DNA of 35,254 nt from an uncultured Caulobacter sp. (GTDB lineage Bacteria > Pseudomonadota > Alphaproteobacteria > Caulobacterales > Caulobacteraceae): contig CAZZZR010000002.1 in NCBI GenBank assembly GCA_964658605.1, positions 1 through 35,254 of the forward strand, written 5' to 3'. Of the stretch, positions 23-32,003 are shown piece by piece (the first letter of the stretch is position 1; every line of letters begins with the position of its first letter). Position numbers and translations under genes: made by a program. The notes under the pieces are model-generated. The model ran no database searches, was not told where the DNA came from, and was given only the letters and a program-made list of their open reading frames with translations.

Positions 23-2780
23 CCACCTTCTCACTGGCGAGGAACTCCCCCTCGAGACGCCGTACACCGGCACGAAGAACGCCGTCACGGAGGGGGAGCG
101 GATCGCGATGGGCTTGCCTGAGGTCGACGCGCTGGCCCGGAAGAGCAGCGGCGAGAACTGGGCGGAGGCGCGGCAGCTCTTCAACGAGGACCCCGACCAC
201 GCTCGCCTGCTCGCGCAGCGGATGGTCGAGAAGCCCCGAGCGTTGACTCCTGTCGAGCGCGACCTGCTGCTGCACGACCGGATGCGGTTGACGCTCGACC
301 ACCGCGCCGCCCTCTCCGACGAGCTGGCCGCCCACCAGGCCGGCGACCCCGAAGCCGTGGCGATGGCGAAGATGCGGCGGCAGTCGATCGAGTCCGCCTT
401 CAACACCAGCAACACCGCGCTCCGACAGGCCGGCTCTGAGTCGGGTGCATCCCTCCAGGCGATCCAGAAGCTGATCTCGGAGGACTACAGCCCGCTCTAC
501 CTGCGCGACCGCCTGACGAACGCGGTGCACGAGAGCGGGGCGCCCGAGATCCCCGGCGCTGCCGACCGCCTGACCGAGATCTCCCGCCAGCTCGAGGAGG
601 CCCACGCCCAGCTCGCCACCTACGAGCAGCGGTTGAGCGAGACGCAGGCGGCCGGCAAGGTGCGCGCGGTCCAGGCGGACGTCGCCGCGGCCGACCGCGC
701 CGGCGTGCGCCGCGCCGCCAAGGAGTCGCTGGACGCCGAGTACCAGGATCTCGCCGCCCGCCTGGAGGCCAAGGCTCGGAAGAACCAGAGCACGGTGAAC
801 ATGTCGGGCGGGCTCGACCCGGAGACGGTCGCCATCATCGGCCGCATGGCCAAGAACCGCGTGCAGGCCGGCGCCCGCGGCCTCGCCGACGTCGTCGACC
901 ACGTCTACCAGACCGTTCGCCCCCACATCGAGGGGCTCGAGCCCTCCGAGGTGCGCGACGCCATCTCCGGCTACGGCACTGTCCGCCCCCAGATGGCGCG
1001 CTCCGAGGCCGTCCAGGAACTTGCCCGCATCCGGCAGGAGGGGCGCGTGCTCGCCGCCCTTGAGGACGCGCGTGCCGCCGGCCGCCCCGCGCGCGAGGTC
1101 GCGCAACTTGAGCGGCAGGCGGAGCTTGTTGCCGACCGCCATCTCCCTGTAGGCCGCGGCCCACTCTCGGACGCAGAGCATCTCGCCGCCACGAAGAACC
1201 GGCTGGCGCGCCGCGAGGCCGAGCTGACCCAGCACATCGCCGACGACTACTTCCCGAAGCGCACCCGCCGGCCCGTCGCCCTCGATTCCGACGCGATCGC
1301 TCTCCAGGGACGGGTGAACGGCCTGAAGCGCCAGGCGGATCTCATCATCCGCAAGCAGGAGCTGGCCGGCCGCACGGCCACGGAGAAGGGGCTCGACCTC
1401 ACCGCGGGCTGGGGGCGGTTCCTGAAGCTCACCGGCACGTCGACCCTCCAGAAGATTAGCTCGGCCGCCGCCGAGCGTGCGCTCGTCTTCCGGCCCATCG
1501 AGGAGTTCCTCGGCGCCGGGATCTCGAAGCTGCCCGTGGTGAAACATTTCGCCGCCGAGGCGCCGATCGAGGGCGGCGGGAGCCTGGGGGCCGTCGCCAA
1601 GGCGTACGGCGGTTTCTTCGGCAAAGCGGCCCGCGAGGAGCTGGCCGCCCACTTGGCAGGCCGCGAGGGCAACCTGGAGCTGGCCCTTGGGAAACCCCAC
1701 CTCGGAGGCGAGACGCCCGCGTGGATGTCCTACCCGGGCCACGTGCACGCCGGCCTCAAGGCGCCGGCCAAGATCGCCGGGTACGAGTACGCCTTGGAGA
1801 AGCAGGCGGCCCACTACCTGAAGCGCGGCCAGCCCGAAATGCTCAACCCCGAGTTGAACCCGGCCGCCGTGCAGGAGATGAAGGCGCGCGCCTGGGAGTA
1901 CGCGAACCGGGACATCTTCATGGGCGACAACGCCGCGGTGGACTCCATCAACAAGGCGCTCGCCGACAAGCCGGGCCAGTCGACAGCGGCGAAGTTCGGG
2001 AAGACGATCGGGCACACGCTGGTGCCCATCGTCAAGGTCCCCACCAACTACGCCCTCGAGGCGACCGACTACCTCGCCGGGCTCCCCAAGGCGGGGCTGG
2101 GGATCGAGAAGACGCTGCGCACCGGCCGCGCCGCCCTGGCCAAGACCCCCGAGGCAGACCAGAACCTCGCCGCCGTGGTCAAGGCGGGCCTCGAGCAGCT
2201 CCCCGACGGCCAGGCCGAGCGGATCATGCGGCAGCTCAAAAAGGGCTCGCTTGGCGCCGGCCTGATCGCCCTCGGCGCCACGGGCGCTGTCGAGGTCGGC
2301 GGCTACTACGACGGCCCGCGGCGCGACGGCGAGCTCGAGCCGGGCCAGATCCGGATCGCCGGCCACGCCGTGCCGCACATGATCCTGCACCACCCGGCTC
2401 TCGAGGCGCTCCAAGTGGGCGGCTCCGTCTACCGCGCCAAGACGGTGGCGGGCGGGCTCGGTACCGCGGCGAAGGGACTGGCGGAGAACATCCCGTTCAT
2501 CGAGACGCCCGTGTCGCTCGCCCGCGACCTCTGGGGCCGGGAGCCCACCAAGGCGGTCGGCTCCTTCGTCCGCGGCATGACGATCCCGCCGGACGCCCAG
2601 CGCCTCGCCCGCGTGCTCGACCCGAAAGGCCAGCAGCTCTCCCCTGGCGAGCAGGCGCTCCAGCAGGCCGGCTGGCTGGACATCCACGCGAAGAAGCGGA
2701 AGCCCCGCGGCTCGCCCCTGCGCAAGATCTTGCAAGAGGAAGAGCTAGGCATCCCCGGTCTGCGGGAAAACGTGAGGTGA
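3..2780 (+). CDS. Large virion-associated protein, 5'-truncated by the window edge (at least 925 aa); coiled-coil-rich N-terminal half; candidate internal virion, ejection or tail protein
   Basis: The listed ORF 108-2780 has no upstream in-frame stop back to nt 3, and codons 3-107 keep very high GC3. A GGAGGGGGAG motif 9 nt before ATG 108 makes an internal start possible. Long Ala/Glu/Arg-rich heptad-like N-terminal half. Function is inferred from size and position only. Confidence 0.75.
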   Translation, partial: DAAPTLRHLLTGEELPLETPYTGTKNAVTEGERIAMGLPEVDALARKSSGENWAEARQLFNEDPDHARLLAQRMVEKPRALTPVERDLLLHDRMRLTLDHRAALSDELAAHQAGDPEAVAMAKMRRQSIESAFNTSNTALRQAGSESGASLQAIQKLISEDYSPLYLRDRLTNAVHESGAPEIPGAADRLTEISRQLEEAHAQLATYEQRLSETQAAGKVRAVQADVAAADRAGVRRAAKESLDAEYQDLAARLEAKARKNQSTVNMSGGLDPETVAIIGRMAKNRVQAGARGLADVVDHVYQTVRPHIEGLEPSEVRDAISGYGTVRPQMARSEAVQELARIRQEGRVLAALEDARAAGRPAREVAQLERQAELVADRHLPVGRGPLSDAEHLAATKNRLARREAELTQHIADDYFPKRTRRPVALDSDAIALQGRVNGLKRQADLIIRKQELAGRTATEKGLDLTAGWGRFLKLTGTSTLQKISSAAAERALVFRPIEEFLGAGISKLPVVKHFAAEAPIEGGGSLGAVAKAYGGFFGKAAREELAAHLAGREGNLELALGKPHLGGETPAWMSYPGHVHAGLKAPAKIAGYEYALEKQAAHYLKRGQPEMLNPELNPAAVQEMKARAWEYANRDIFMGDNAAVDSINKALADKPGQSTAAKFGKTIGHTLVPIVKVPTNYALEATDYLAGLPKAGLGIEKTLRTGRAALAKTPEADQNLAAVVKAGLEQLPDGQAERIMRQLKKGSLGAGLIALGATGAVEVGGYYDGPRRDGELEPGQIRIAGHAVPHMILHHPALEALQVGGSVYRAKTVAGGLGTAAKGLAENIPFIETPVSLARDLWGREPTKAVGSFVRGMTIPPDAQRLARVLDPKGQQLSPGEQALQQAGWLDIHAKKRKPRGSPLRKILQEEELGIPGLRENVR

Positions 2781-2783
2781 TGG

Positions 2784-3122
2784 ATGTCCCCTGGTAGTCG
2801 CCAGCCCGCCCAGCAGCCGCCCGCGTCCGACGGGCAGTTCGCCAACTTCGGCCGGTTTCGAGACTGGTTGCTCGCCTTAGTGGTGGCGCTCTTGCTTGGT
2901 CTCGTTGGATGGATCGCACAGGACAAAATCGGAAGTTCCGCGAAATTGGAGATCGAGATTCAAGAACTTCGAGAGCGGATGAATGTGGAATATACGGCTA
3001 CGGTTCGCACGCAAGGCGACTATGGCGAAAGACTTGGGCGACTAGAAACCAGAATTTCGATTCAAAACGAAGAGATTCTAAAGCGCCTCGACCGCATCGA
3101 ATCGCAGCATCCGGCGAAATAG
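2784..3122 (+). CDS. Single-pass membrane protein with C-terminal coiled coil (holin, i-spanin or exclusion-like architecture)
   Basis: GAGG 6 nt upstream of the ATG. Hydrophobic helix WLLALVVALLLGLVGWIA followed by a heptad-like segment LEIEIQELRERM...LGRLETRISIQNEEILKRLDRIE. Region is AT-richer than its flanks (about 47% GC in a hand-counted 100 nt). Confidence 0.75.
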   Translation: MSPGSRQPAQQPPASDGQFANFGRFRDWLLALVVALLLGLVGWIAQDKIGSSAKLEIEIQELRERMNVEYTATVRTQGDYGERLGRLETRISIQNEEILKRLDRIESQHPAK

Positions 3123-3159
3123 GAGGAATACCCATGGAGCTTCGGCGAAGGAGATCATC

Positions 3160-3504
3160 ATGGCAAGCACGCGCCAACGCAGTTCATCCCGCCCAGCCGA
3201 TCTCGACCTGACCGGGGGGTTTCGCCTTGACCTGAAATCCATCATCTTGATCGCAGGCGTGCTTGGGAGTTGGTATAGCCAGAGCGGAAAAATCGATGCG
3301 ATCACCGCCCGGCTGGACCTTGAGGCGAAGGCTAGCGCCACGATCAAGGCGGCCGAGAACGATGCTGCAAAAGCCCGCGGCGAGCTCGCTGCTGAGCAGC
3401 AGCGCGCTCTCGCCGAGAGTCTGACGAAGCTAGAGGGCCAGTTGAAGGTGACCTCGATGGACGTAAGCGACCTAAAAATCCTGACCGCAAAAGGAAGGAG
3501 CTAA
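3160..3504 (+). CDS. Second single-pass membrane protein with C-terminal coiled coil
   Basis: GAAGGAG SD 7 nt upstream. TM segment IILIAGVLGSWY, then an Ala/Glu/Lys-rich coiled-coil-like tail. Same architecture as 2784-3122. Confidence 0.75.
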   Translation: MASTRQRSSSRPADLDLTGGFRLDLKSIILIAGVLGSWYSQSGKIDAITARLDLEAKASATIKAAENDAAKARGELAAEQQRALAESLTKLEGQLKVTSMDVSDLKILTAKGRS

Positions 3505-8445: not shown

Positions 8446-8831
8446 TTCGGCCCCTTCGCCAGCTCGACCTTAAGGTTTATGTGCCATTGCTCCCAGAGCC
8501 CCTTAAAACCGTTGTCGATTGCCTTCACGAGTCCTTCGGCCGCAACCCGCAGCCCGGGGTAGGCGTTGTAGCGGTCTTTCGCTGCCGCATAGATCGCAAA
8601 GTGTTCCTCGCGGGTCCTTGGCCGGAAATCGCCCTCCGAATAGAGGTGGCAGTTGAAGTTCCCGCCGCAGTCCACCGCCGGGCCGTACGAGATCCGCTCG
8701 GGCAAGCGCACCGGCTCCGGAGCGAACTCCAGGCCGGCGCGCTTGGCGAGCTCGACGGCCGCGTCTTCACCGTTGCAGGCGACCTCCAAATGGAAGGCAC
8801 GTCGGTACTCTGTTTCCGTCATCATCTTCAC
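8442..8831 (-). CDS. Hypothetical protein (about 127-129 aa)
   Basis: GTG 8831 overlaps the upstream TGA. ATG 8825 lies 5 nt after GGAGGAG and may be the true start. Confidence 0.7.
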   Translation of the reverse strand: MKMMTETEYRRAFHLEVACNGEDAAVELAKRAGLEFAPEPVRLPERISYGPAVDCGGNFNCHLYSEGDFRPRTREEHFAIYAAAKDRYNAYPGLRVAAEGLVKAIDNGFKGLWEQWHINLKVELAKGPK

Positions 8832-23946: not shown

Positions 23947-25854
23947 GTGGACTACGCCGACCTTCCTGCCAGCCCTGACGACCCTCGCTACTTCCGACGC
24001 ATCAAGAACGTCACCTCCTTGCTGAAGGCGAAGCAGGATCGCCTCGTCGAGGAGGGGATGCTGATGGACCGCTTCACGGCGGAGGACGACTTCTACTGGT
24101 TCCTCCTGCGGTTCACCAGCTTCGCCGATCCCGCCATCCGCAACCCGAGCGCCAAGGGCTTCCGAATCACCGAGCGCGGCCACCCGCTGCGCGGCAAGCT
24201 CTGGATTGAGCACCCGTTCATGTTCTGGTACGCCCGCGAGCTTCAGCGGATCATCGCCGAGCCGCCAGACGGCCCGGTGTGGATCTGCATGCACCGGATC
24301 GCCTACAAGTCGACGTTGATGCAGCTCTTCATTCCCTGGCTGCACACCCGCGACGAGACCGAGACGTGCGCGCTCTGGACGCACTCCGTCGACAAGATCG
24401 GCAGCAACATGGGCCGCGTCGTGCTCGACCTGGCGCAGAGCCCTTTGATGGTCGCTCACTGGCCCCAATTCGAGATGCGCGAGGCAAAGAACCTCGGCTA
24501 CATGCTGGACCGGCCGCCCGGCCCGCGCGACCAGAGCTTCTCCGTCTACTCCATCGTCGGCTCGATCGAGTCCATTCACCCCAACTGGTTTTTCCTCGAC
24601 GACGTTGTAACCCAGGCGCTGCGCGGCAACGTCGAGCAGATCGCCAAGATTTCCCAGCGTGTCTCGGCGATCGCCGCGGCGATGCCGCCGGACGCCGCCA
24701 TGGTCTGCGCGAACACGCCGTGGGACGAGAGCGACCCGCTGATGACTCGGGCGAAGGATGGCTGGTTCGGACGCATCATTGAGCAGTGGGCGACCGAGGG
24801 CGGCCGGGTGCTGGAGAAGATCGGCGGCGAGATGGTAGAAGTCGGGCCGGCGTTCACCCGCCGCGGCAGCGCCAACCTGCACACCCAGAGCTATTTCGAG
24901 GGCCAGCGCGTCAAGATCAACGACGATTCGATCTTCTACCCGCAATTCGAGGGAAAATTCTTCAAGTCGCCGACGGTCCTCTTCGACTGGAACACGGTGC
25001 GCGTCTACGAGGAGGACCCTCTCGTCCTGGCGAAGGCGTCCCCGTTCATTCACATCATCGTCGACGGCGCTGGCGGCGGAAAGGGAGCCGACTTCTGCGC
25101 GATCCGCGTCATGACCTGGACCGCGAACGACGCTTTCGCCAACCTCGACCTCATCCGCGAGCGCATCGGCCAGACGTTCGCCCTCCAGCTCCTCCTCGGC
25201 CGCGACGAGACGGATGCGAGCTCGGAGTGGATTCCGGCGACCTACCCGCGGTACGGCAAGGTGGGGATCGTCGAGTACTGGATGGCCGTGGACCCGCAGC
25301 TCGTGGTGTGGTTCGACGACAACACCGCGGCCGGCTGGGCGGCGGCGTTCGCCGAGCACAAGCGCCTGCGCCGCATTCGCTTCGGCGGCGACGGTCCCCT
25401 GGTGCGGAAGTGGCCCGAGGTCCACATGAACCGCCGCGAGGGCGCCAGCACGAAAGAATGGCTGATCCGCGGCCTCGAGAGGTGGTACGCTCAAGGTCGC
25501 ATTGCGTATCCGAAGCTGGTGAGCGCGGGCGGTAAGGGCTTCGGCCACGGCTCGCGGTTCGGTCTGACCGGGAGCTCCGACGACCGCGATACCGGCGACC
25601 AGTTCAAAAGCGACGAGTTCTCGCGGATGGATCTCGGCAAGCTGCCGCCGTTCGACGACATGCTCGACACCGAACGCGTCCCGACCATGGAGAAGGTGAT
25701 GACCCAGATGCGACGGCCAGCGCCAGGTGGCGGCTACACCTTCGGCGAGAAGACCTTCCCGGCGCCGACCATTCAGAACCCGTGGGGCTTCCCGCGCACC
25801 TGGTTCAAACAGGATCGTCGCGAGGAACAGAAAGCGGGCTGGCTCTCTTGGTGA
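23947..25854 (+). CDS. terL: Terminase large subunit
   Basis: Deviant Walker A (HRIAYKST), Walker B-like WFFLDDVV, and C-terminal nuclease signature IIVDGAGGGKGADFCAIRV (RNase H-like first Asp motif). Lies upstream of portal. GTG start. Confidence 0.8.
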   Translation: MDYADLPASPDDPRYFRRIKNVTSLLKAKQDRLVEEGMLMDRFTAEDDFYWFLLRFTSFADPAIRNPSAKGFRITERGHPLRGKLWIEHPFMFWYARELQRIIAEPPDGPVWICMHRIAYKSTLMQLFIPWLHTRDETETCALWTHSVDKIGSNMGRVVLDLAQSPLMVAHWPQFEMREAKNLGYMLDRPPGPRDQSFSVYSIVGSIESIHPNWFFLDDVVTQALRGNVEQIAKISQRVSAIAAAMPPDAAMVCANTPWDESDPLMTRAKDGWFGRIIEQWATEGGRVLEKIGGEMVEVGPAFTRRGSANLHTQSYFEGQRVKINDDSIFYPQFEGKFFKSPTVLFDWNTVRVYEEDPLVLAKASPFIHIIVDGAGGGKGADFCAIRVMTWTANDAFANLDLIRERIGQTFALQLLLGRDETDASSEWIPATYPRYGKVGIVEYWMAVDPQLVVWFDDNTAAGWAAAFAEHKRLRRIRFGGDGPLVRKWPEVHMNRREGASTKEWLIRGLERWYAQGRIAYPKLVSAGGKGFGHGSRFGLTGSSDDRDTGDQFKSDEFSRMDLGKLPPFDDMLDTERVPTMEKVMTQMRRPAPGGGYTFGEKTFPAPTIQNPWGFPRTWFKQDRREEQKAGWLSW

Positions 25855-25866
25855 GGAGAAAAAACG

Positions 25867-26340
25867 GTGAGCTTTAAACTGACTGACGCAGAGCGGAAAC
25901 TATTTCACTGCCTGCTCGAGCGTAAGTCCTCTGGTTGCCTGGAATTTGTCGGGCTACGCGATCGTGATGGCTACGGGATATTCTTTCTCCGCCGCAGCGG
26001 AAAACGGATTAAGGTCAGGGCTCATCGTGTCGCGTTTGTCGACTCGGGAGGCTGTTTTTCTGCCGGAAAAAACGAAATTTTGCATTCTTGCGATAATCCC
26101 TCTTGCTGCGATGTCAATCACTTGTCCTCCGGCAGCTCGCTTGACAATCATCGCGACATGGCCCGGAGGAACCGAGGGACCAAGGCACCCGAGCGGCCTC
26201 TTGGAATCCGTTTCCATTTCAACCGTTGGGAAGCGCAGGTCAAGATCGCCGGACGCTCTGTTTACTTGGGCCGATTCACATTTTGGCAAGAAGCGGCTGC
26301 CCTGGCCGCTTTCCGCAGAAACGAGGCTCTCTTCGCATGA
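25867..26340 (+). CDS. HNH_3 + AP2-domain homing endonuclease (free-standing, low-GC insertion)
   Basis: GYGIF...RAHRVAF...HSCDNPSCCDVNHL..GS...N is the HNH_3 signature. GIRFHFNRWEAQVKIAGRSVYLGRFTFWQEAAALA is AP2-like. GAGGAG SD 7 nt before the GTG. About 53% GC in a hand-counted 100 nt, against much higher flanks. Confidence 0.85.
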   Translation: MSFKLTDAERKLFHCLLERKSSGCLEFVGLRDRDGYGIFFLRRSGKRIKVRAHRVAFVDSGGCFSAGKNEILHSCDNPSCCDVNHLSSGSSLDNHRDMARRNRGTKAPERPLGIRFHFNRWEAQVKIAGRSVYLGRFTFWQEAAALAAFRRNEALFA

Positions 26341-28775
26341 TCAATTCGCCCAACGACTTCGGCGGGCCGCCCGCCGGCGACGAACCGGAGGGCTCGCAGC
26401 CTCCGGTCGCGAAGGGCTTGACCGACCAGGACGTGCTTCGGCGCTACAAGCGCTCCATGGCCGACGCGCAGAGCGAGCACAAGCGCGTGGTGAGCGAGAT
26501 CGAGGATCTCTTTTCCGCGTACGGCCTGAATTCCTTCAAGCGCGGCGACTTCGCCGACATGAAGGAGACCTGGAAGGACAATCCGCCCGAGATCGGCATC
26601 CTCCTCTCGGCCGTGAACACGTTCTGGGGCTCGCTGATCGCCTCCCGCCGCGAGCCGGCGTTTCCTGGCTTCGACATGGGGACTGCCGACGCCGTCCTGG
26701 GCGAGGCGTTGACCCAGCTCATCAAAGCGGGGCGCCGCTGGGCGAGCTCGGACGACGTCGACGAGGACGTCGTGCTCGACGCCATCCTCTGCGGGTACGG
26801 TTTCGCTCGCCAGTCGCTCGAGACCGAGACCCGGCCGCCCTTCCACCCGGACGAGGAGTACGTCAGCGCCGATCGCGTGTGGTGGGACCCGGGCGGCCAC
26901 GGGAAGAACTGCGCCGACGCCCAGGAATGGATCGTCCGCGACTTCTACAGCCTCGACGAGGCCGAGGCGCGCTTCCCCGAGCAGCGGGACCTCTTCGCGG
27001 GGCTCCGACTGGCCCTCGGCGGCGACAGCGGCGCGGCCGGCAACGCCGCGCGCGACGGCGTCCAGCAGATGGGCGGGAAAAACATCCAGGTCAGCATCAA
27101 CGCGATCGACGGCCGGGAGTCCTCCAGCGGCGCGACGCCGCGGCGGCTGCGCGAGGTGCCCGTCGACGATTTCCAGTTCAAGGTGTGGGAACAGATGGTC
27201 GGCTGGTACGCCCCCGACGAGGAGAGCGGGAAGTCCCGCTGGCACGAGGCGCGCCAGGCGGACTTCCAAGCAGGCCTCGAGGCGATGCAAGCCGAAACCG
27301 AGACGTCCGGCCAGCCCTTCGATCCGCCGCAGGTCAACGAGTACCCCTCCGCCACCTGGTACCGCGCGCGCATCCTCGCCAGCACCGCCGCCGGCGAGCC
27401 GAAGGTGATCCAATCCGCCGAGCCGATCGACGGCAACCAGCGCCTGGTGCGCCCGATGACCGGCTACAAGGAGCGGTACAACCCGGAGGGCTCGGAGGAC
27501 ACGCTCCGGACCCGCTATTTCGGATTCGGCCGCGTGCTCGTGGGTCTCCAGCGCCTTTTCTCGGTGGCGATGCGGCTCTACATCGAGCAGGAAGCTCGTC
27601 GGAATCGAGATGGGTGGGACGTCGAGCGCAGCGCCTTCGGAGGCGACGAAAACGCGATGCAGACGTTCATCAACTCGCGCCGCATTCCGGGCTCGGTGAA
27701 CATCATCCCCGACGGCGCCTACGAGAAGCTCCACAAGAGGGACGAGCAGCCGAAATCGAACACCTCCGAGATCCAGGGCATGTTCTCGTTCCTCGCCAAC
27801 GACCTCGTGAGCTACTCGCTCGGCGTTTCGGACGTTTCCCGTGGAACGTTCACCGAAGACCGGTCGGCGAAGTGGGTGTCGGCGCTCAACCAGTCGAGCC
27901 TCCAGATGCAGCAGATGTTCACCCAGTCGTTCACCTCCTACCTCGAGGAGGGGGCCGTCACCCAGGCGCGGTTGATGCTCCTCCATCTGGACCCTGAAGA
28001 CCTGGACCGCCTGCTGGGAGACCAGCCGCTGCGCAAGGGGATCACCGGCCAGGTGGGCCAGGACGGCAAGACGCTCGAGCCCATCATGGTCGACGACGAG
28101 ACGACGCCCGGCCAGCAGGTTCCGATGACGATGGGTCGGTACCTCAAAGAGAACATGCGCGAGGTGATGGACAATGACGTTGCCTTTGGCCTGCGGCCGA
28201 GCGCGGCGACGGAGCGTATCGCCAATGCGCAACTTATGCTGCAGCACGGCATCTACAAGGATATCGCCGACCTTTTGAGCGACATTCCCGAGGCGAAAGA
28301 GATTCTGGCGCCGGTGGTGCTCCGCGCGAGCTTCGCCGAGGGCTCCGACTACGCCGACGTGGCCGACAAGCTCGAGGCGCTGATTCAGCAGAAGCAGGAG
28401 GAGCGTGCGCAGCAACAGGCGGAGCAGAGTGACCAGGGCTGGCTCGGCGTCATCCAGCAGATGGCCCAGAGCGACCCTCAGCACGCGCAACAGCTCCTCC
28501 AGCAGGCCCAGCAGGCGCTCGGCGGCGGCCAGGGCCAGCCGGGAGACTCGCAGGGTGCCCAGAATGGCCAGCCAGGCGCTTCCGCCGGCCGCCAGCCGTC
28601 AATGCAGATCAACTTCAAGGACTTGACCGACGCCGAGCGCGCGCAGATGCTCGCGAAGGTCCAAATCCAGGCCGATCCGACCCCGCCGCCGATGCCGATG
28701 CCCGGGATGCAGCCCGGAACTCCGCCGGCGCCCCAGATGCCCATGCAACCCCCTCCAGGAGGACCGACGCAATGA
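26337..28775 (+). CDS. Portal protein candidate (812 aa) with Gln/Pro/Met-rich C-terminal tail
   Basis: Position between terminase and scaffold. Size. ATGA overlap with the HNH stop. No motif-level confirmation. Confidence 0.75.
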   Translation: MINSPNDFGGPPAGDEPEGSQPPVAKGLTDQDVLRRYKRSMADAQSEHKRVVSEIEDLFSAYGLNSFKRGDFADMKETWKDNPPEIGILLSAVNTFWGSLIASRREPAFPGFDMGTADAVLGEALTQLIKAGRRWASSDDVDEDVVLDAILCGYGFARQSLETETRPPFHPDEEYVSADRVWWDPGGHGKNCADAQEWIVRDFYSLDEAEARFPEQRDLFAGLRLALGGDSGAAGNAARDGVQQMGGKNIQVSINAIDGRESSSGATPRRLREVPVDDFQFKVWEQMVGWYAPDEESGKSRWHEARQADFQAGLEAMQAETETSGQPFDPPQVNEYPSATWYRARILASTAAGEPKVIQSAEPIDGNQRLVRPMTGYKERYNPEGSEDTLRTRYFGFGRVLVGLQRLFSVAMRLYIEQEARRNRDGWDVERSAFGGDENAMQTFINSRRIPGSVNIIPDGAYEKLHKRDEQPKSNTSEIQGMFSFLANDLVSYSLGVSDVSRGTFTEDRSAKWVSALNQSSLQMQQMFTQSFTSYLEEGAVTQARLMLLHLDPEDLDRLLGDQPLRKGITGQVGQDGKTLEPIMVDDETTPGQQVPMTMGRYLKENMREVMDNDVAFGLRPSAATERIANAQLMLQHGIYKDIADLLSDIPEAKEILAPVVLRASFAEGSDYADVADKLEALIQQKQEERAQQQAEQSDQGWLGVIQQMAQSDPQHAQQLLQQAQQALGGGQGQPGDSQGAQNGQPGASAGRQPSMQINFKDLTDAERAQMLAKVQIQADPTPPPMPMPGMQPGTPPAPQMPMQPPPGGPTQ

Positions 28776-29986
28776 GCGCAGACCTGATTTCCATGGACAG
28801 CGCCCTCGAGGGCGCCGATTCCGCCCCGGACACCGGCACCGACAGCGCCGGGGGCGACTACGGGCTCTCCGGGCTGGAGCAGGCCCTCGACAGCACGTCG
28901 ACGGGCGAACAAGGCGGCGGCCAGCCGTCCGCGCCGCCGCCGCCAAGCTCCGCGCCCTCCGGGTACCAGCGTGCCGACTTCACCGGCCGCCGCGGGAGCT
29001 ACCAGCAGGCGCAGGGCTCGTGGAAGAGCCGCCAGATGCAGCGGCAGCAACAGCTGGAGAGCGCCCGCCTGGAGCGCGAGGGCTTCAAAGAGCAGATGTC
29101 GCAGATTGCGGATCTGATGAAGCAGACCGTGGCGCTCACCCAGAAGCCCGGCGAGCAGGAGCCGCCGCCGGACCCCTTCACCGACTGGGCCGGGTTTCAG
29201 GCGTGGCAGGCGAAGCAGCAGGACGCCCTCCTCGACGCCAAGCTGAAGCCCGTCATCGAGTACTACAAGCAGACCCGCGAGCGCGACGAGCAGGTCGCGC
29301 AGCAGCAGTACCACTCCCAGCAACAGCAAGAGCAGATCACCCACACGACCAGTGCGCTCCAGGAGGCCCACGCGTCCTACGCCCGCGACTACCCGGAGCT
29401 CGCCCACGGCGCCGAGGAGCGGATCACCTTCGGCCTCGAGGCGCTGACGAACGTCCTGTCGAACGGGCTCGGGTGGACGGAGCAGGGCGCGCAGCTCGCC
29501 GGCACGATCACGCTCTCGATCGCCAAGTACGCGGCGGCCGGCGGCGAGAACCCCGCCGCGGCGGTCGACGCCTTCTACACGAACCTGACCCAGGAAATCG
29601 GGGAGAGCATCCGGAGCCACTACGCCGCGCTCGGGTACGACCTGCCGGAGATCATGCCGGCGGCGCCGGGCGGGTATCAGGAGCAGGGCGGTGGGTACCA
29701 GCAGCCGATGTACCAGCAGCCGCAAGTCGACCCGGCCGCGCGGGAGAATGCCCGGCTTCAGGCCGTCCGCCAGCGCTCGCAAGGCGTCGCCTCGCCGCGC
29801 CCGCGCCAGCCCGCCCGCGGCAACTACGCGCAGCCCGGCAGCCGCGCCCATGCTCTCGCGAACGACTACCGTCGCGCCGGCCGTGACGTCGACTGGAACC
29901 AGGTCACGCGAGTGGCAAAGGAGGAGGCGGGAGGCAACTTCGCGCTCGCCCAGAAGATCATCCAGGCCATCCCGCGGGAAGCCTGA
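28772..29986 (+). CDS. Scaffolding protein candidate (404 aa, Gln-rich, helical or low-complexity)
   Basis: ATGA overlap with portal. Position before the capsid gene. Q/E-rich helical composition. Confidence 0.65.
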   Translation: MSADLISMDSALEGADSAPDTGTDSAGGDYGLSGLEQALDSTSTGEQGGGQPSAPPPPSSAPSGYQRADFTGRRGSYQQAQGSWKSRQMQRQQQLESARLEREGFKEQMSQIADLMKQTVALTQKPGEQEPPPDPFTDWAGFQAWQAKQQDALLDAKLKPVIEYYKQTRERDEQVAQQQYHSQQQQEQITHTTSALQEAHASYARDYPELAHGAEERITFGLEALTNVLSNGLGWTEQGAQLAGTITLSIAKYAAAGGENPAAAVDAFYTNLTQEIGESIRSHYAALGYDLPEIMPAAPGGYQEQGGGYQQPMYQQPQVDPAARENARLQAVRQRSQGVASPRPRQPARGNYAQPGSRAHALANDYRRAGRDVDWNQVTRVAKEEAGGNFALAQKIIQAIPREA

Positions 29987-29995
29987 AAAAACTAG

Positions 29996-30017
29996 GGCCC
30001 GCCGGTGAGGGCGGGCC
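29996..30017. terminator. 8-bp GC hairpin GGCCCGCC-GGTGAG-GGCGGGCC just after the scaffold stop; an A6 tract precedes it on the plus strand (equivalent to a T6 tail on the minus strand)
   Basis: Read directly. The geometry is canonical for a minus-strand intrinsic terminator, or for a tail-less plus-strand hairpin. Confidence 0.45.
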
Positions 30018-30553
30018 AGGGGAAAGGACAGGTGCCATCCGGGCGGGGCGGCACGAAGATCCTACCAGCACCTCCTTCCCCTGGTCAAATCCCCAACCGC
30101 GGCGCCGCCGACAAGGCGCGCACCGTGAATCTGTGACGCGCCCCGCAGTCTGGCGAGGACGCGGACGGCCGCCAGGTACAACCGCCGTTCGGGTAACGAT
30201 TCTTTGGCAACTGCAACACCGAGCCCCTGAGCGCCAGGGGTGTGCCGCGGAACGGGGAGTAATCGACTCCTCCTCTCTTCGGAGGGGATCACGGGCGACG
30301 TCGCGGTCGTATGTGAATCAGGCGTAAGCAGCACCCATCGGTGGCAAACAGGCCGGACGTCACGAACCCGGTGCCAAGGAGAGAAGATTCACGAGAGGAC
30401 GCCCGTGTGCCCGGACGATGCGGTAGAATGGCGGGTACCGGGAGAGGCTGGGCCTCGACAATCTGGCGCTCGCGGTAGACAGGGGTTAAGCCGCCCGTCC
30501 GTGCGACGCACGTAGCGGTGGGAGTCGAGAGCGCCCACCGTAGGCATTTTTGA
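30016..30553 (+). ncRNA. Candidate large structured RNA body (helix-rich, ORF-free); class unknown
   Basis: Multiple strong local and nested helices, including a cUUCGg tetraloop (details in the findings). No protein-like ORF. Strand is assigned only from the downstream tRNA-like module. Confidence 0.3.
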
Positions 30554-30635
30554 AGCGGGTACGGCCAGAGCGCCGGTGCGCTTGGAGGGCTCATATCCCT
30601 CCCCGAGCTGGGTTCGACTCCCAGGCCCGCCACCA
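30554..30635 (+). tRNA. tRNA-like element: CAU anticodon-type loop, canonical T-arm, acceptor stem with 1:72 mismatch, encoded CCA, aberrant D-arm (possible pseudo-tRNA, TLS or attP fragment)
   Basis: Anticodon-type arm GAGGG-CTCATAT-CCCTC. T-arm CTGGG-TTCGACT-CCCAG. GCCCGCC-A-CCA pairs with AGCGGGT. The D region is 8 unpaired nt plus the AGCGC-CGGT-GCGCT hairpin, which is not canonical. Confidence 0.5.
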
Positions 30636-30646
30636 ACCTTCTCCGC

Positions 30647-30676
30647 TTGACACTTCGGCCATTCTGGCACTACCCT
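30647..30676 (+). promoter_or_regulatory. Promoter candidate TTGACA-N18-TACCCT for the capsid gene
   Basis: Perfect -35 hexamer at 30647-30652. TAnnnT-type -10 at 30671-30676. Followed by a 5' leader of about 145 nt with the hairpin GCTCCGC/GCGGAGC (30711-30717/30726-30732) and an AGGAGG SD. Confidence 0.45.
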
Positions 30677-30827
30677 TTCTTCAAGCACATCGCTTTCCGG
30701 CTCGCCTGAGGCTCCGCAACCCCGCGCGGAGCTGTATCACGCAGGCGACGCCGAGGGTAGCCGGGCCTGGACTTCCTGGTGTGGGGAAACCACGAGGGGC
30801 GCACAGCGCTCCCGCAGGAGGCCCAAG

Positions 30828-32003
30828 ATGCCCACCGCAGTCTACCCGGGCGGATATCTCGATCAGAAACGGTGGAGTCCGACCGTAACGCTCTTCACGG
30901 AGAGCCAGACCGTCGTCGCGCACCTGATCGGCACCGACGACAACGCCGTGATCCACGCGGACATGAAGCAGATCGAGGCCGACGTCCGCGGCTCTCAGAC
31001 CGAGTTCAAGTACGGCGACCGCTTCCGCGGCTCGCAGCTTGGCCCCAAGCCGCTCGGCACCACGAAGTTCGGCTCGGAGACCGGCCAGCGCCCGCTCTAC
31101 AAGCAGACGCTGAACCTCCTCCCGCAGGAGCTGGCGACCGCCGGTTTCTTCGCGCTGTGGAGCGGCCAGCAGTACACCGACGTGCCGATCGACCGGCACG
31201 ACCTCCGCGCCGCCGGCGCCGAGGCCGCAGAGATCTACTCGCGCTCGATGTACTACCACCTGGCGGGGATCACCGCCTACAACACGCCGGCGTACAACTC
31301 CAACTGGTCGAGCCCCCCGATGGGGAACCTCGTCCGCGAGCTCGACGCCAGCCACCGGTACTTCTGCAACGGCAACACGACCGACGCGGGCGTGGCGGCG
31401 GACGGCTCGGCGAACCTCACCATGGAGTTCCTCGAGAGCATCGCCACCAAGCTCTCCAGCCACGCCTACGTGCAGAGCCCCGGCGCCATCCCCAGCACCC
31501 CGTGGGGCGACTTCATCATCTTCATCTGCGACCCCGAGGGGAATCAGCAGCTGCAGACGCACTCGACGTCCAACAGGTACATGAGCCTGACGCTTTCCGA
31601 GCTGAACGGCGGCGCGAGCCTCGACAAGGTCGGCGCGTTCATGAAGCTCAATCAGGGGTTCGTGGGCACCAAGCAGATCCTCGTGCTCGTCGATGACATG
31701 ACGCCGTTCGGCCAGTCGGGCAGTACGGCGGACGATGTCACGGCCGGCACCCAGATCGGCAACGTGCGCCGCGGGATGCTCCTCTTCCGCCGGGCCATGG
31801 AGGTCCAGTGGGGGCAGGGCTTCACCAGCGACACCTCGCACGTCATGGCCAGCTACTTCCAGGAACACGAGTGGGAGAGCTGGAAGCTCTTTACCCACTG
31901 GGGCGGCCTCGCGACGCGCCCCGACGCCGCCACCGGTTCGGGCCAGCGGTTCGGCTCGGCCACGGTCAGCTACCACGTCGGGGCCGGAACCCCGATCTAC
32001 TAG
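30828..32003 (+). CDS. Major capsid protein candidate (391 aa)
   Basis: AGGAGG SD 8 nt upstream. Position after the scaffold gene. Size and composition typical of major capsid proteins. No motif-level proof. Confidence 0.75.
   Translation: MPTAVYPGGYLDQKRWSPTVTLFTESQTVVAHLIGTDDNAVIHADMKQIEADVRGSQTEFKYGDRFRGSQLGPKPLGTTKFGSETGQRPLYKQTLNLLPQELATAGFFALWSGQQYTDVPIDRHDLRAAGAEAAEIYSRSMYYHLAGITAYNTPAYNSNWSSPPMGNLVRELDASHRYFCNGNTTDAGVAADGSANLTMEFLESIATKLSSHAYVQSPGAIPSTPWGDFIIFICDPEGNQQLQTHSTSNRYMSLTLSELNGGASLDKVGAFMKLNQGFVGTKQILVLVDDMTPFGQSGSTADDVTAGTQIGNVRRGMLLFRRAMEVQWGQGFTSDTSHVMASYFQEHEWESWKLFTHWGGLATRPDAATGSGQRFGSATVSYHVGAGTPIY

Follow-up and report, generated by a model that had tools for sequence, protein, structure and literature searches.

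What fills the gap between the scaffold and capsid genes of a divergent, tailed phage of 67% G+C? The phage lies in a stretch of 35,254 nucleotides (nt) from an uncultured Caulobacter sp. assembly (GCA_964658605.1, contig CAZZZR010000002.1; hereafter the window, meaning this whole stretch), in which 841 nt separate the stop codon of the scaffold-position gene (29984-29986) from the capsid ATG (30828). A reading of the bare sequence had put this spacer at about 840 nt, described it as helix-rich and ending in a tRNA-like module, and proposed (a) one large structured RNA with a tRNA-like 3' handle, (b) a degenerate tRNA beside a decayed gene or (c) a phage attachment site (attP) copied from a host tRNA gene. 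We find that the spacer is a mosaic of separate parts and not one RNA with a tRNA handle: it is a cargo slot between two head-gene transcription units, holding here an RNA module and a window-specific tRNA-like gene. The spacer length, the absence of coding, the tRNA-like arms, the capsid promoter and four helices of this sequence-only reading stood, whereas a GTGAATC pairing and the 3' handle fell. The claim that the spacer carries no coding signal holds because the G+C content at third codon positions (GC3) is flat, 0.6-0.77 in all three frames over 30000-30800 compared with 0.9-1.0 in frame for the scaffold and capsid genes, and because no open reading frame (ORF) on either strand is conserved among homologs of the module.

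A conserved module and the fold of its RNA core

The conserved non-coding module spans 29987-30432 and is common to the window and the loci L006/L007, L056, L148/L161 and L168 (blastn, MAFFT). Using blastn, window positions 30088-30262 and 30381-30408 were found in L006, whose capsid is only 56% identical to that of the window. Pattern scans built from blocks shared by the window and its homologs then located further copies. In IMG/VR the sole true match was L056, the remaining matches of the three scans (22, 54 and 60 stretches) being chance or coding sequence, and a metagenome scan gave three true matches out of 24 (L148, L161 and L168, from Joint Genome Institute soil or rhizosphere samples), with the L161 RNA identical to that of L148. 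Two matches to conserved RNA-core blocks in a genome-collection scan arose by chance, so that no host or prophage was identified. The module is rare, and its five distinct copies all come from soil or related metagenomes. An nhmmer profile built without the window sequence recovered window 29996-30413 with E=1.6e-42, as the only copy in the window.

In all five distinct sequences the module lies between the scaffold region and the capsid gene and begins at most 10 nt after the upstream stop codon. L148/L161 and L168 belong to very distant phages, with capsid and portal about 26% identical to those of the window, and hold the module at the same position; nine relatives (L001-L005 and L085-L088) lack it. 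Between L006 and L056, identity is 97% for the capsids (90.5% at the DNA level) but only 70% for the elements, so that similarity of the RNA does not follow that of the capsid. Compared with one another, the copies outside the window are 70-79% identical, while the window copy matches them at about 60%. Because the element is patchy among close relatives, common to distant ones and set in mosaic flanks, we regard it as a horizontally exchanged module.

Rfam 15 at gathering thresholds gave no match at all over the whole window, not even to tRNA. With permissive filters, the families brought up by the sequence-only reading (GOLLD, ROOL, transfer-messenger RNA (tmRNA), RNase P and group I/II introns) remained without a match at E<=10 in 29700-31000 and in the four homolog loci, as did the OLE, raiA and HEARO covariance models. 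The homolog loci gave no family at all, and the window searches yielded a sub-threshold tRNA-Sec match besides noise. ARAGORN found no tmRNA in the window, and blastn against cultured phages and plasmids returned no match for the window spacer or for its L161 version. The module would thus be an accessory non-coding RNA (ncRNA) of a family new to Rfam, with a structure that comparison supports well. The family, its fold, its fixed slot and its association with a predicted antisense small RNA (sRNA) gene are undescribed in Rfam 15 and in the literature searched. The phage group itself is essentially unannotated, being absent from INPHARED and represented by a related capsid gene in just five IMG/VR contigs.

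Covariation across homologous spacers, which the sequence-only reading had held to be the decisive test, came out in favour of a fold. We scanned an alignment of the five distinct sequences (A6: window, L006, L056, L148/L161 and L168) for runs of columns that pair in all five, which yielded eight helices with at least two double compensatory changes. In the curated structure, 97.7% of cells are paired and 22 of the 70 pairs are changed on both sides, compared with 7.5+-2.1 in shuffles (0 of 500 reach this number), and sliding the 3' partners by 1-3 columns leaves only 0-5 double-changed pairs. Because the helices were picked from the same alignment, we repeated the picking on 200 column-shuffled alignments. 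Whereas the real alignment contains 14 helices of at least 5 bp paired in five of five sequences, seven of which show two or more double changes, the shuffled alignments average 0.155 and 0.005 with a maximum of 1, and none of the 200 reaches the observed counts. The folding energy of the window RNA by itself is unremarkable (z = -1.29), and the case for structure therefore rests on comparison. Judged by compensatory changes in excess of these controls across five sequences, the core is a conserved structured RNA with the following parts:

30100-30413: structured RNA core of about 320 nt with multiple pseudoknots, 70 pairs in 11 helices
30115-30123/30133-30142: helix 1, hairpin GGCGCGCAC/GTG-a-CGCGCC with a 9-nt loop (30124-30132), 6 of 9 pairs double-changed
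30124-30132/30385-30393: helix 2, pseudoknot A, 9-bp long-range pairing of the loop (CGTGAATCT) with AGATTCACG
30200-30222: 5' strands of three stacked long-range helices (helices 4-6), namely TTCTTTGGC with 30373-30381, CTG with 30349-51 and CACCGA with 30338-43
30223-30241: hairpin GCCCCT/AGGGGT, 4 of 6 stem pairs double-changed
30231-35/30321-25: pseudoknot B, loop GCGCC with GGCGT, 2 of 5 pairs double-changed (helices 7 and 8)
30245-49/30302-06: helix CCGCG/CGCGG (helices 9 and 10 cover 30245-30306)
30290-97/30400-07: helix 11, pseudoknot C, long-range helix CACGGGCG/CGCCCGTG with CG/CG, CA/TG and TG/CA covariation

Pseudoknot A is paired in all five sequences with a change from CU/AG to UC/GA, the variants being CGUGAAUCU/AGAUUCACG and CGUGAAUUC/GAAUUCACG. 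Pseudoknot B occurs as GCGCC/GGCGU, GCCGC/GCGGU and GCGGC/GCCGC, and pseudoknot C crosses both 30200-22/30338-81 and 30245-49/30302-06. The latter helix encloses a hairpin at 30254-72, the variable hairpin at 30271-88 and the 5' strand of the 30290-97 helix. Three helices predicted from the window alone (30115-23/30133-42, 30224-29/30235-40 and 30290-97/30400-07) carry compensatory changes in the homologs, and the predicted hairpin at 30271-88 has a counterpart at that site in every homolog, with a differing sequence and a length from 17 to 78 nt. The proposed helix GTGAATC/GATTCAC (30313-19/30386-92) is not a conserved pairing, since GATTCAC pairs with the loop 30124-32 in pseudoknot A.

In the L056 copy, a 5'-domain hairpin (on the minus strand of that locus, about 8535-8560) has the loop CGUGAAUUC, identical to the downstream loop that forms the pseudoknot, and GAAUUCACG therefore has two candidate partners there.

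The predicted antisense gene, the right end and the tRNA-like gene

The left part of the module carries signals on the opposite strand:

30088->30059, minus strand: predicted sigma-70-type promoter, TTGACC, 18 nt, TAGGAT, with TG ahead of the -10 hexamer
29987-30052, minus strand: predicted sRNA of about 65 nt, consisting of a 5' hairpin, a C/U-rich single-stranded stretch (CCUUUCCCCUGG, CCUCC-like) and the terminator
30017->29986, minus strand: intrinsic terminator from a terminator scan, an 8-bp G+C stem (30017->29996) followed by CTAGTTTTTT

We searched both strands of the five aligned sequences for TTGACA-like and TAnnnT hexamers 16-19 nt apart and found exactly one shared site, on the minus strand and in the same alignment column of all five (TTGAC-17/18-TAnnnT; TTGACG/T-17/18-TAAGGT or TAGCGT in the homologs). 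The only other match was the capsid promoter of the window. The invariant blocks GUCAAC and CUUAC looked like RNA motifs at first, but the -35 and -10 hexamers of this site account for them. All homologs share the arrangement of terminator hairpin and T-run, and A.C cells of this hairpin in L006 and L148 turn into G.U only on the minus strand (A6). The T-run abuts the scaffold stop codon and appears on the plus strand as an A-run before the hairpin. From this promoter and terminator, a minus-strand transcript of 62-70 nt is predicted, and the folds of its five versions share one layout. The left 100 nt or so, at the scaffold-proximal end of the module, would accordingly constitute a small antisense gene. 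At the level of sequence this corresponds to a cis-antisense arrangement, in which a promoter and a terminator delimit a short predicted RNA antisense to the 5' part of a longer one.

The candidate helix CCAGGGGAAAGGA/TCCTTCCCCTGG (30016-28/30072-83) of the sequence-only reading is complementary in all five sequences, yet non-cognate arms pair just as well as cognate ones. Its 3' arm coincides with the spacer of the conserved minus-strand promoter, to which the helix would join the sRNA body.

To the right of the core, three further features follow, of which only the leftmost belongs to the conserved module:

30422-30429, plus strand: GGTAGAAT (with TAGAAT at 30424-29), invariant in all five sequences
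30436-30553, plus strand: window-specific stretch (about 118 nt) ending in a hairpin (30516-30540) and then TTTTT (30546-50)
30554-30635, plus strand: deviant tRNA-like gene (ARAGORN) with CAU anticodon, canonical T-arm, A73 and encoded CCA

GGTAGAAT lies 0 to 45 nt from the last core helix and is probably the -10 element of a rightward promoter for variable cargo of the cassette. The alignment places an ATG 5-7 nt after TAGAAT in L006, L056 and L148/L161, where it opens a small ORF, a spacing that would fit the pattern of a leaderless-mRNA promoter. The ORFs after TAGAAT differ between phages; for one of them, of 73 amino acids (aa), the versions in L006 and L168, phages otherwise far apart, are 88% identical. 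In three homologs (L006 2959-3228, L168 2289-2071 and L161 1295-1603), the RNA is followed by a small helical ORF. Other homologs of the 73-aa ORF (P0037-P0043) adjoin Macro-domain genes in unrelated phages of about 70 kb that lack the RNA, and a linkage of the RNA to this ORF was dropped, as the ORF occurs elsewhere in unrelated phages or in tightly packed contigs without the RNA. A Shine-Dalgarno (SD)-like GGGAGGA, followed after 5 nt by GUG, lies within the 3' strand of the 30400-07 helix (window 30400-30432 and homologous positions). Short ORFs from this GUG are not conserved, and in L006 and L056 they end exactly at the UAG of GGUAGAAU; the SD-GUG pair could be chance or a sequestered upstream ORF.

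The window-specific stretch 30436-30553 has no homolog in any locus and no exceptional fold (z = -0.54). Its hairpin CGGTGGG...CCCACCG (30516-30540), followed by TAGGCATTTTTG, looks like a weak plus-strand terminator ahead of the tRNA-like gene, and should it act as one, 30436-30551 could form a small transcript of its own. Both helices proposed within 30465-30540 by the sequence-only reading fall in this window-specific stretch and stay candidates.

As the sequence-only reading had described, the tRNA-like gene has an anticodon arm (GAGGG-CUCAUAU-CCCUC), a T-arm (CTGGG-TTCGACT-CCCAG), A73, an encoded CCA and an acceptor stem of 6 bp plus an A.C mismatch at 1:72, and ARAGORN calls it as the single gene in the window, a tRNA-Met(CAT) of 77 nt (30555-30631). 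That call requires a shifted acceptor stem and a 4-bp T-stem, and its D-stem has two standard pairs and one wobble among four positions. In an alternative reading of the abnormal D-arm, about 9 unpaired nt are followed by a 5-bp/4-nt hairpin, for which reason tRNA-Sec scores best within the Rfam clan, at 30.8 bits and below the gathering threshold of 47. U8 is missing, position 8 being A or C, and the minimum free energy (MFE) fold is not a cloverleaf (z = -1.24). Acceptor stem, anticodon arm, T-arm and the 3' CCA with discriminator are thus present, whereas the score stays under the canonical tRNA threshold and the D-arm is not canonical.

Bacterial initiator tRNA-fMet and phage tRNAs resemble the element in the CAU anticodon, the three consecutive G:C pairs closing the anticodon stem (GGG/CCC beside the CUCAUAU loop), a mismatch at 1:72, A73, the GTTCGA T-loop and the encoded CCA. 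The element differs from an initiator tRNA in having A1.C72 and not C1.A72, in lacking U8, in its deviant D-arm and in its sub-threshold Rfam score. It occurs in the window only, with no relative in the homolog loci, and blastn against phage and plasmid collections returned just generic T-arm similarity and no close tRNA. The module cannot end in it as a 3' handle, as had been suggested, since it is absent from the four homologs and about 120 nt of window-specific sequence lie in between. It would be separate cargo, perhaps a specialised initiator-like tRNA, perhaps only a processing signal or a gene in decay.

Strand, mechanism and rival explanations

The explanation that accounts best for these data, which we put forward tentatively and at slightly under an even chance, is a horizontally exchanged RNA module that acts in trans and is accompanied by an antisense sRNA. 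The large RNA would be made on the plus strand late in infection, by read-through from the portal-scaffold operon, and would act in trans, its folded form binding or sequestering a factor of the host or of the phage. Such an accessory function would be like that of a moron and of the arms-race type. The antisense sRNA, made from a constitutive promoter, would pair with the 5' domain of the large RNA and limit its accumulation or folding.

Regarding the strand of the core, we lean slightly towards the plus strand, which read-through from the scaffold operon would transcribe. The helices 30254-72 and 30200-08/30373-81 point this way with their invariant internal G.U pairs, as does the variable hairpin, whose loop is a cUUCGg tetraloop and whose plus-strand form is the more stable one in four of five sequences; moreover, none of the five sequences has a promoter-like site on the minus strand to the right of the core. 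For the minus strand speak a tandem A.C adjoining two helices, which would be G.U there, and the minus-strand cargo that relatives have in the slot. Several results weigh against a trans-acting plus-strand RNA. In symmetrically chosen helices, G.U cells (plus-only) and A.C cells (minus-only) number 11 vs 8 overall and 4 vs 4 internally, alifold and MFE values are similar on both strands, the only recognisable intrinsic terminator is on the minus strand, and neither a promoter nor a terminator flanks the RNA on the plus strand. With only five distinct sequences, some helices depend on one or two substitution events. Duplex energies of the sRNA with the capsid ribosome-binding site are no better than those of shuffled controls in four of five sequences, and the constant scaffold-capsid position even in distant phages could indicate a cis role in head-gene expression.

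Such a cis role is the main rival, and we consider it unlikely. The module would then be an element of the head operon, a scaffold 3' untranslated region (UTR) or a distal capsid leader, that governs processing, stability, termination or read-through and sets the scaffold-to-capsid ratio, with the antisense sRNA tuning it. This would fit a module that always lies between the scaffold gene (or a small post-scaffold ORF) and the capsid gene, in the same orientation even at about 26% capsid identity, that in each of the five sequences begins no more than 10 nt from the upstream stop codon and that has an SD-like GGGAGG and a GUG in the 3' strand of the 30400-07 helix. However, the closest relatives without the module keep the same capsid promoter and 5' UTR, and capsid expression is therefore independent of the module; another ORF intervenes between RNA and capsid gene in three of the five homologs, and eleven helices and three pseudoknots far exceed the needs of known processing or terminator elements. 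Less likely again, in our estimate, is a single minus-strand ncRNA gene of about 450 nt that ends at the conserved terminator and to which the internal promoter adds a short 3'-coterminal sRNA. It would account for the sole intrinsic terminator being conserved on the minus strand, for the minus-strand cargo of L001 and L002 in the same slot, for the tandem A.C beside two helices and the A.C cells in the terminator hairpin, all of which become G.U, and for an MFE that is slightly lower on the minus strand in four of five sequences. Yet it would need a promoter to the right of the core, where none of the five sequences has a candidate on that strand, it would turn the invariant internal G.U pairs (30254-72; 30200-08/30373-81) into C.A mismatches, and the variable hairpin favours the plus strand in four of five sequences.

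The three earlier proposals fare worse. One RNA of about 650 nt ending in the tRNA-like module and akin to GOLLD or ROOL is very improbable as written. The structured RNA of the window does adjoin the tRNA-like gene in the same orientation, and tRNAs are frequent neighbours of the phage or prophage RNAs GOLLD and ROOL (PMC12286853), but the tRNA-like part and the preceding 120 nt are absent from all four homologs, the conserved TAGAAT element and a terminator-like hairpin separate the two parts, and neither family matches at E<=10. What survives of this proposal is a structured, covarying RNA of about 420 nt without an Rfam match. We give the least credence of all to a remnant or attachment site, whether a decayed protein gene with a degenerate tRNA or a host tRNA copied as an attP. 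In its favour are a tRNA-like gene that deviates and scores below the Rfam threshold and a right cassette boundary about 6 nt after the CCA, this boundary being all that speaks for an attP. Against a decayed gene stand the compensatory changes, the absence of a conserved ORF and indels whose lengths are not divisible by three; of that proposal only the deviant tRNA holds, the sequence upstream of it being conserved RNA with flat GC3. Against an attP stand the absence of an adjacent integrase (its neighbours are the scaffold gene on the left and the capsid promoter and gene on the right), a full-length cloverleaf in place of a 3' half and the lack of a close tRNA in phage or plasmid collections.

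Returning to the trans-acting module with its antisense sRNA, comparison with known systems shows partial likenesses. To our knowledge, only a small number of large RNAs from bacteria or phages combine many conserved helices with several pseudoknots, and those characterised have proved to be ribozymes, cores of ribonucleoproteins or, in recent work, RNA nanocages. In ColE1 RNA I/RNA II and Sok/hok, a short antisense RNA that ends at a terminator is encoded across from the 5' end of a long, structured partner. The geometry here is alike, and on the strand of the long RNA the A-run that corresponds to the terminator U-run precedes the shared hairpin. We claim a likeness in architecture only and no membership, as there is no Rfam RNAI match, no evident origin, no toxin ORF and no promoter found for the long RNA, and as the setting is a high-G+C soil phage and not an enterobacterial plasmid. 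Readings as a ColE1-like origin or a type I toxin-antitoxin system fail for want of an evident origin and of a toxin ORF. Readings as a group I/II intron, RNase P, tmRNA, an IS605-type element or a single-stranded DNA origin were likewise dropped because no defining feature was present.

Classical morons encode proteins, whereas the conserved cargo here is RNA only. Morons resemble the module as units between head genes that are present or absent in close relatives, have their own host-type promoter and factor-independent terminator and alternate with other cargo; as far as sequence can tell, the module is variably present between structural genes and has a predicted promoter and terminator of its own. 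With GOLLD and ROOL it shares large size, multiple pseudoknots, the lack of a protein, phage encoding and a patchy distribution. It differs from them in having no sequence or structure match to either Rfam model at E<=10, in being about half their size or less, in having a tRNA neighbour in just one of five members, and in its fixed scaffold-capsid position and predicted antisense sRNA gene. GOLLD env-38 lies downstream of a Met-tRNA, and the window copy is alike in its Met-type tRNA neighbour (PMC12286853).

The kind of object is thus already known (large ornate phage RNAs, cis-antisense pairs, morons), and this family is new to Rfam 15. That the module stands for a new class of phage RNA, of ribozyme size, with multiple pseudoknots and an antisense control sRNA to itself, as an RNA-only accessory system that spreads horizontally into the scaffold-capsid slot of unrelated soil phages, is possible but on balance doubtful. 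Examples of such a system would be a decoy or sponge against a host defence or translation factor, a toxin-antitoxin-like pair, or a self-assembling particle like ROOL/GOLLD. The RNA travels between unrelated phages as a cassette, at about 320-420 nt it is compact enough for structural work, and the predicted antisense sRNA is a built-in experimental handle. Knowledge of its target or action would add a new functional RNA class to phage biology and would test whether morons can be RNA-only. The deviant initiator-like tRNA is a second, smaller curiosity.

The slot in relatives and the flanking genes

The cargo slot lies among the following features of the window:

23947-25854: large terminase gene
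26226-28775: P22-type portal gene
28772-29986: scaffold-position gene, stop codon 29984-29986
30647-30676, plus strand: capsid promoter TTGACA-N18-TACCCT, conserved in four relatives
30828-32003: capsid gene, ATG at 30828

Pfam (E<=0.001) and PHROGs returned nothing for ten long ORFs beyond the head region (window 1-23900), for the small neighbouring ORFs or for the cargo ORFs of relatives.

We reached relatives through capsid homologs and compared the scaffold-capsid distance in 13 of them, in which the slot measures from about 243 to about 3000 nt. The module is missing from the three closest relatives, L001-L003 (capsids 95, 86 and 81% identical). At the nucleotide level, their homology to the window ends at 29976 and restarts at 30641, 30666 or 30751, which indicates that window 29977-30640 is replaced in them, by 1124 nt in L001, about 555 nt in L002 and about 243 nt in L003. 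None of the relatives' slots contains a tRNA gene.

The L001 slot (2187-3310) is filled by three small minus-strand ORFs of 129, 77 and 63 aa, none of which has a Pfam or PHROG match. This ORF cassette closes with a minus-strand terminator adjoining the scaffold stop, of the same kind as that of the module, and the slot therefore takes autonomous cassettes in antisense orientation; L002, too, has minus-strand cargo there.

Homology with the relatives that lack the cassette restarts at about 30641, just before the capsid promoter, which had been predicted from the window sequence and is indeed kept in four relatives. A TTGACA-N18-TA(C/A)CCT promoter and a 5' UTR of about 150 nt downstream of the slot are common to all relatives examined, so that the transcription start of the capsid gene is independent of slot content. 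We aligned this leader over window 30647-30827, L001 3311-3500, L002, L003 and L004 (alignment A7). Blocks of the 5' UTR (GAGGG... and CTGG...GGGGAA) are invariant over relatives with 60-95% identical capsids, and the capsid 5' UTR may be a structured leader in its own right.

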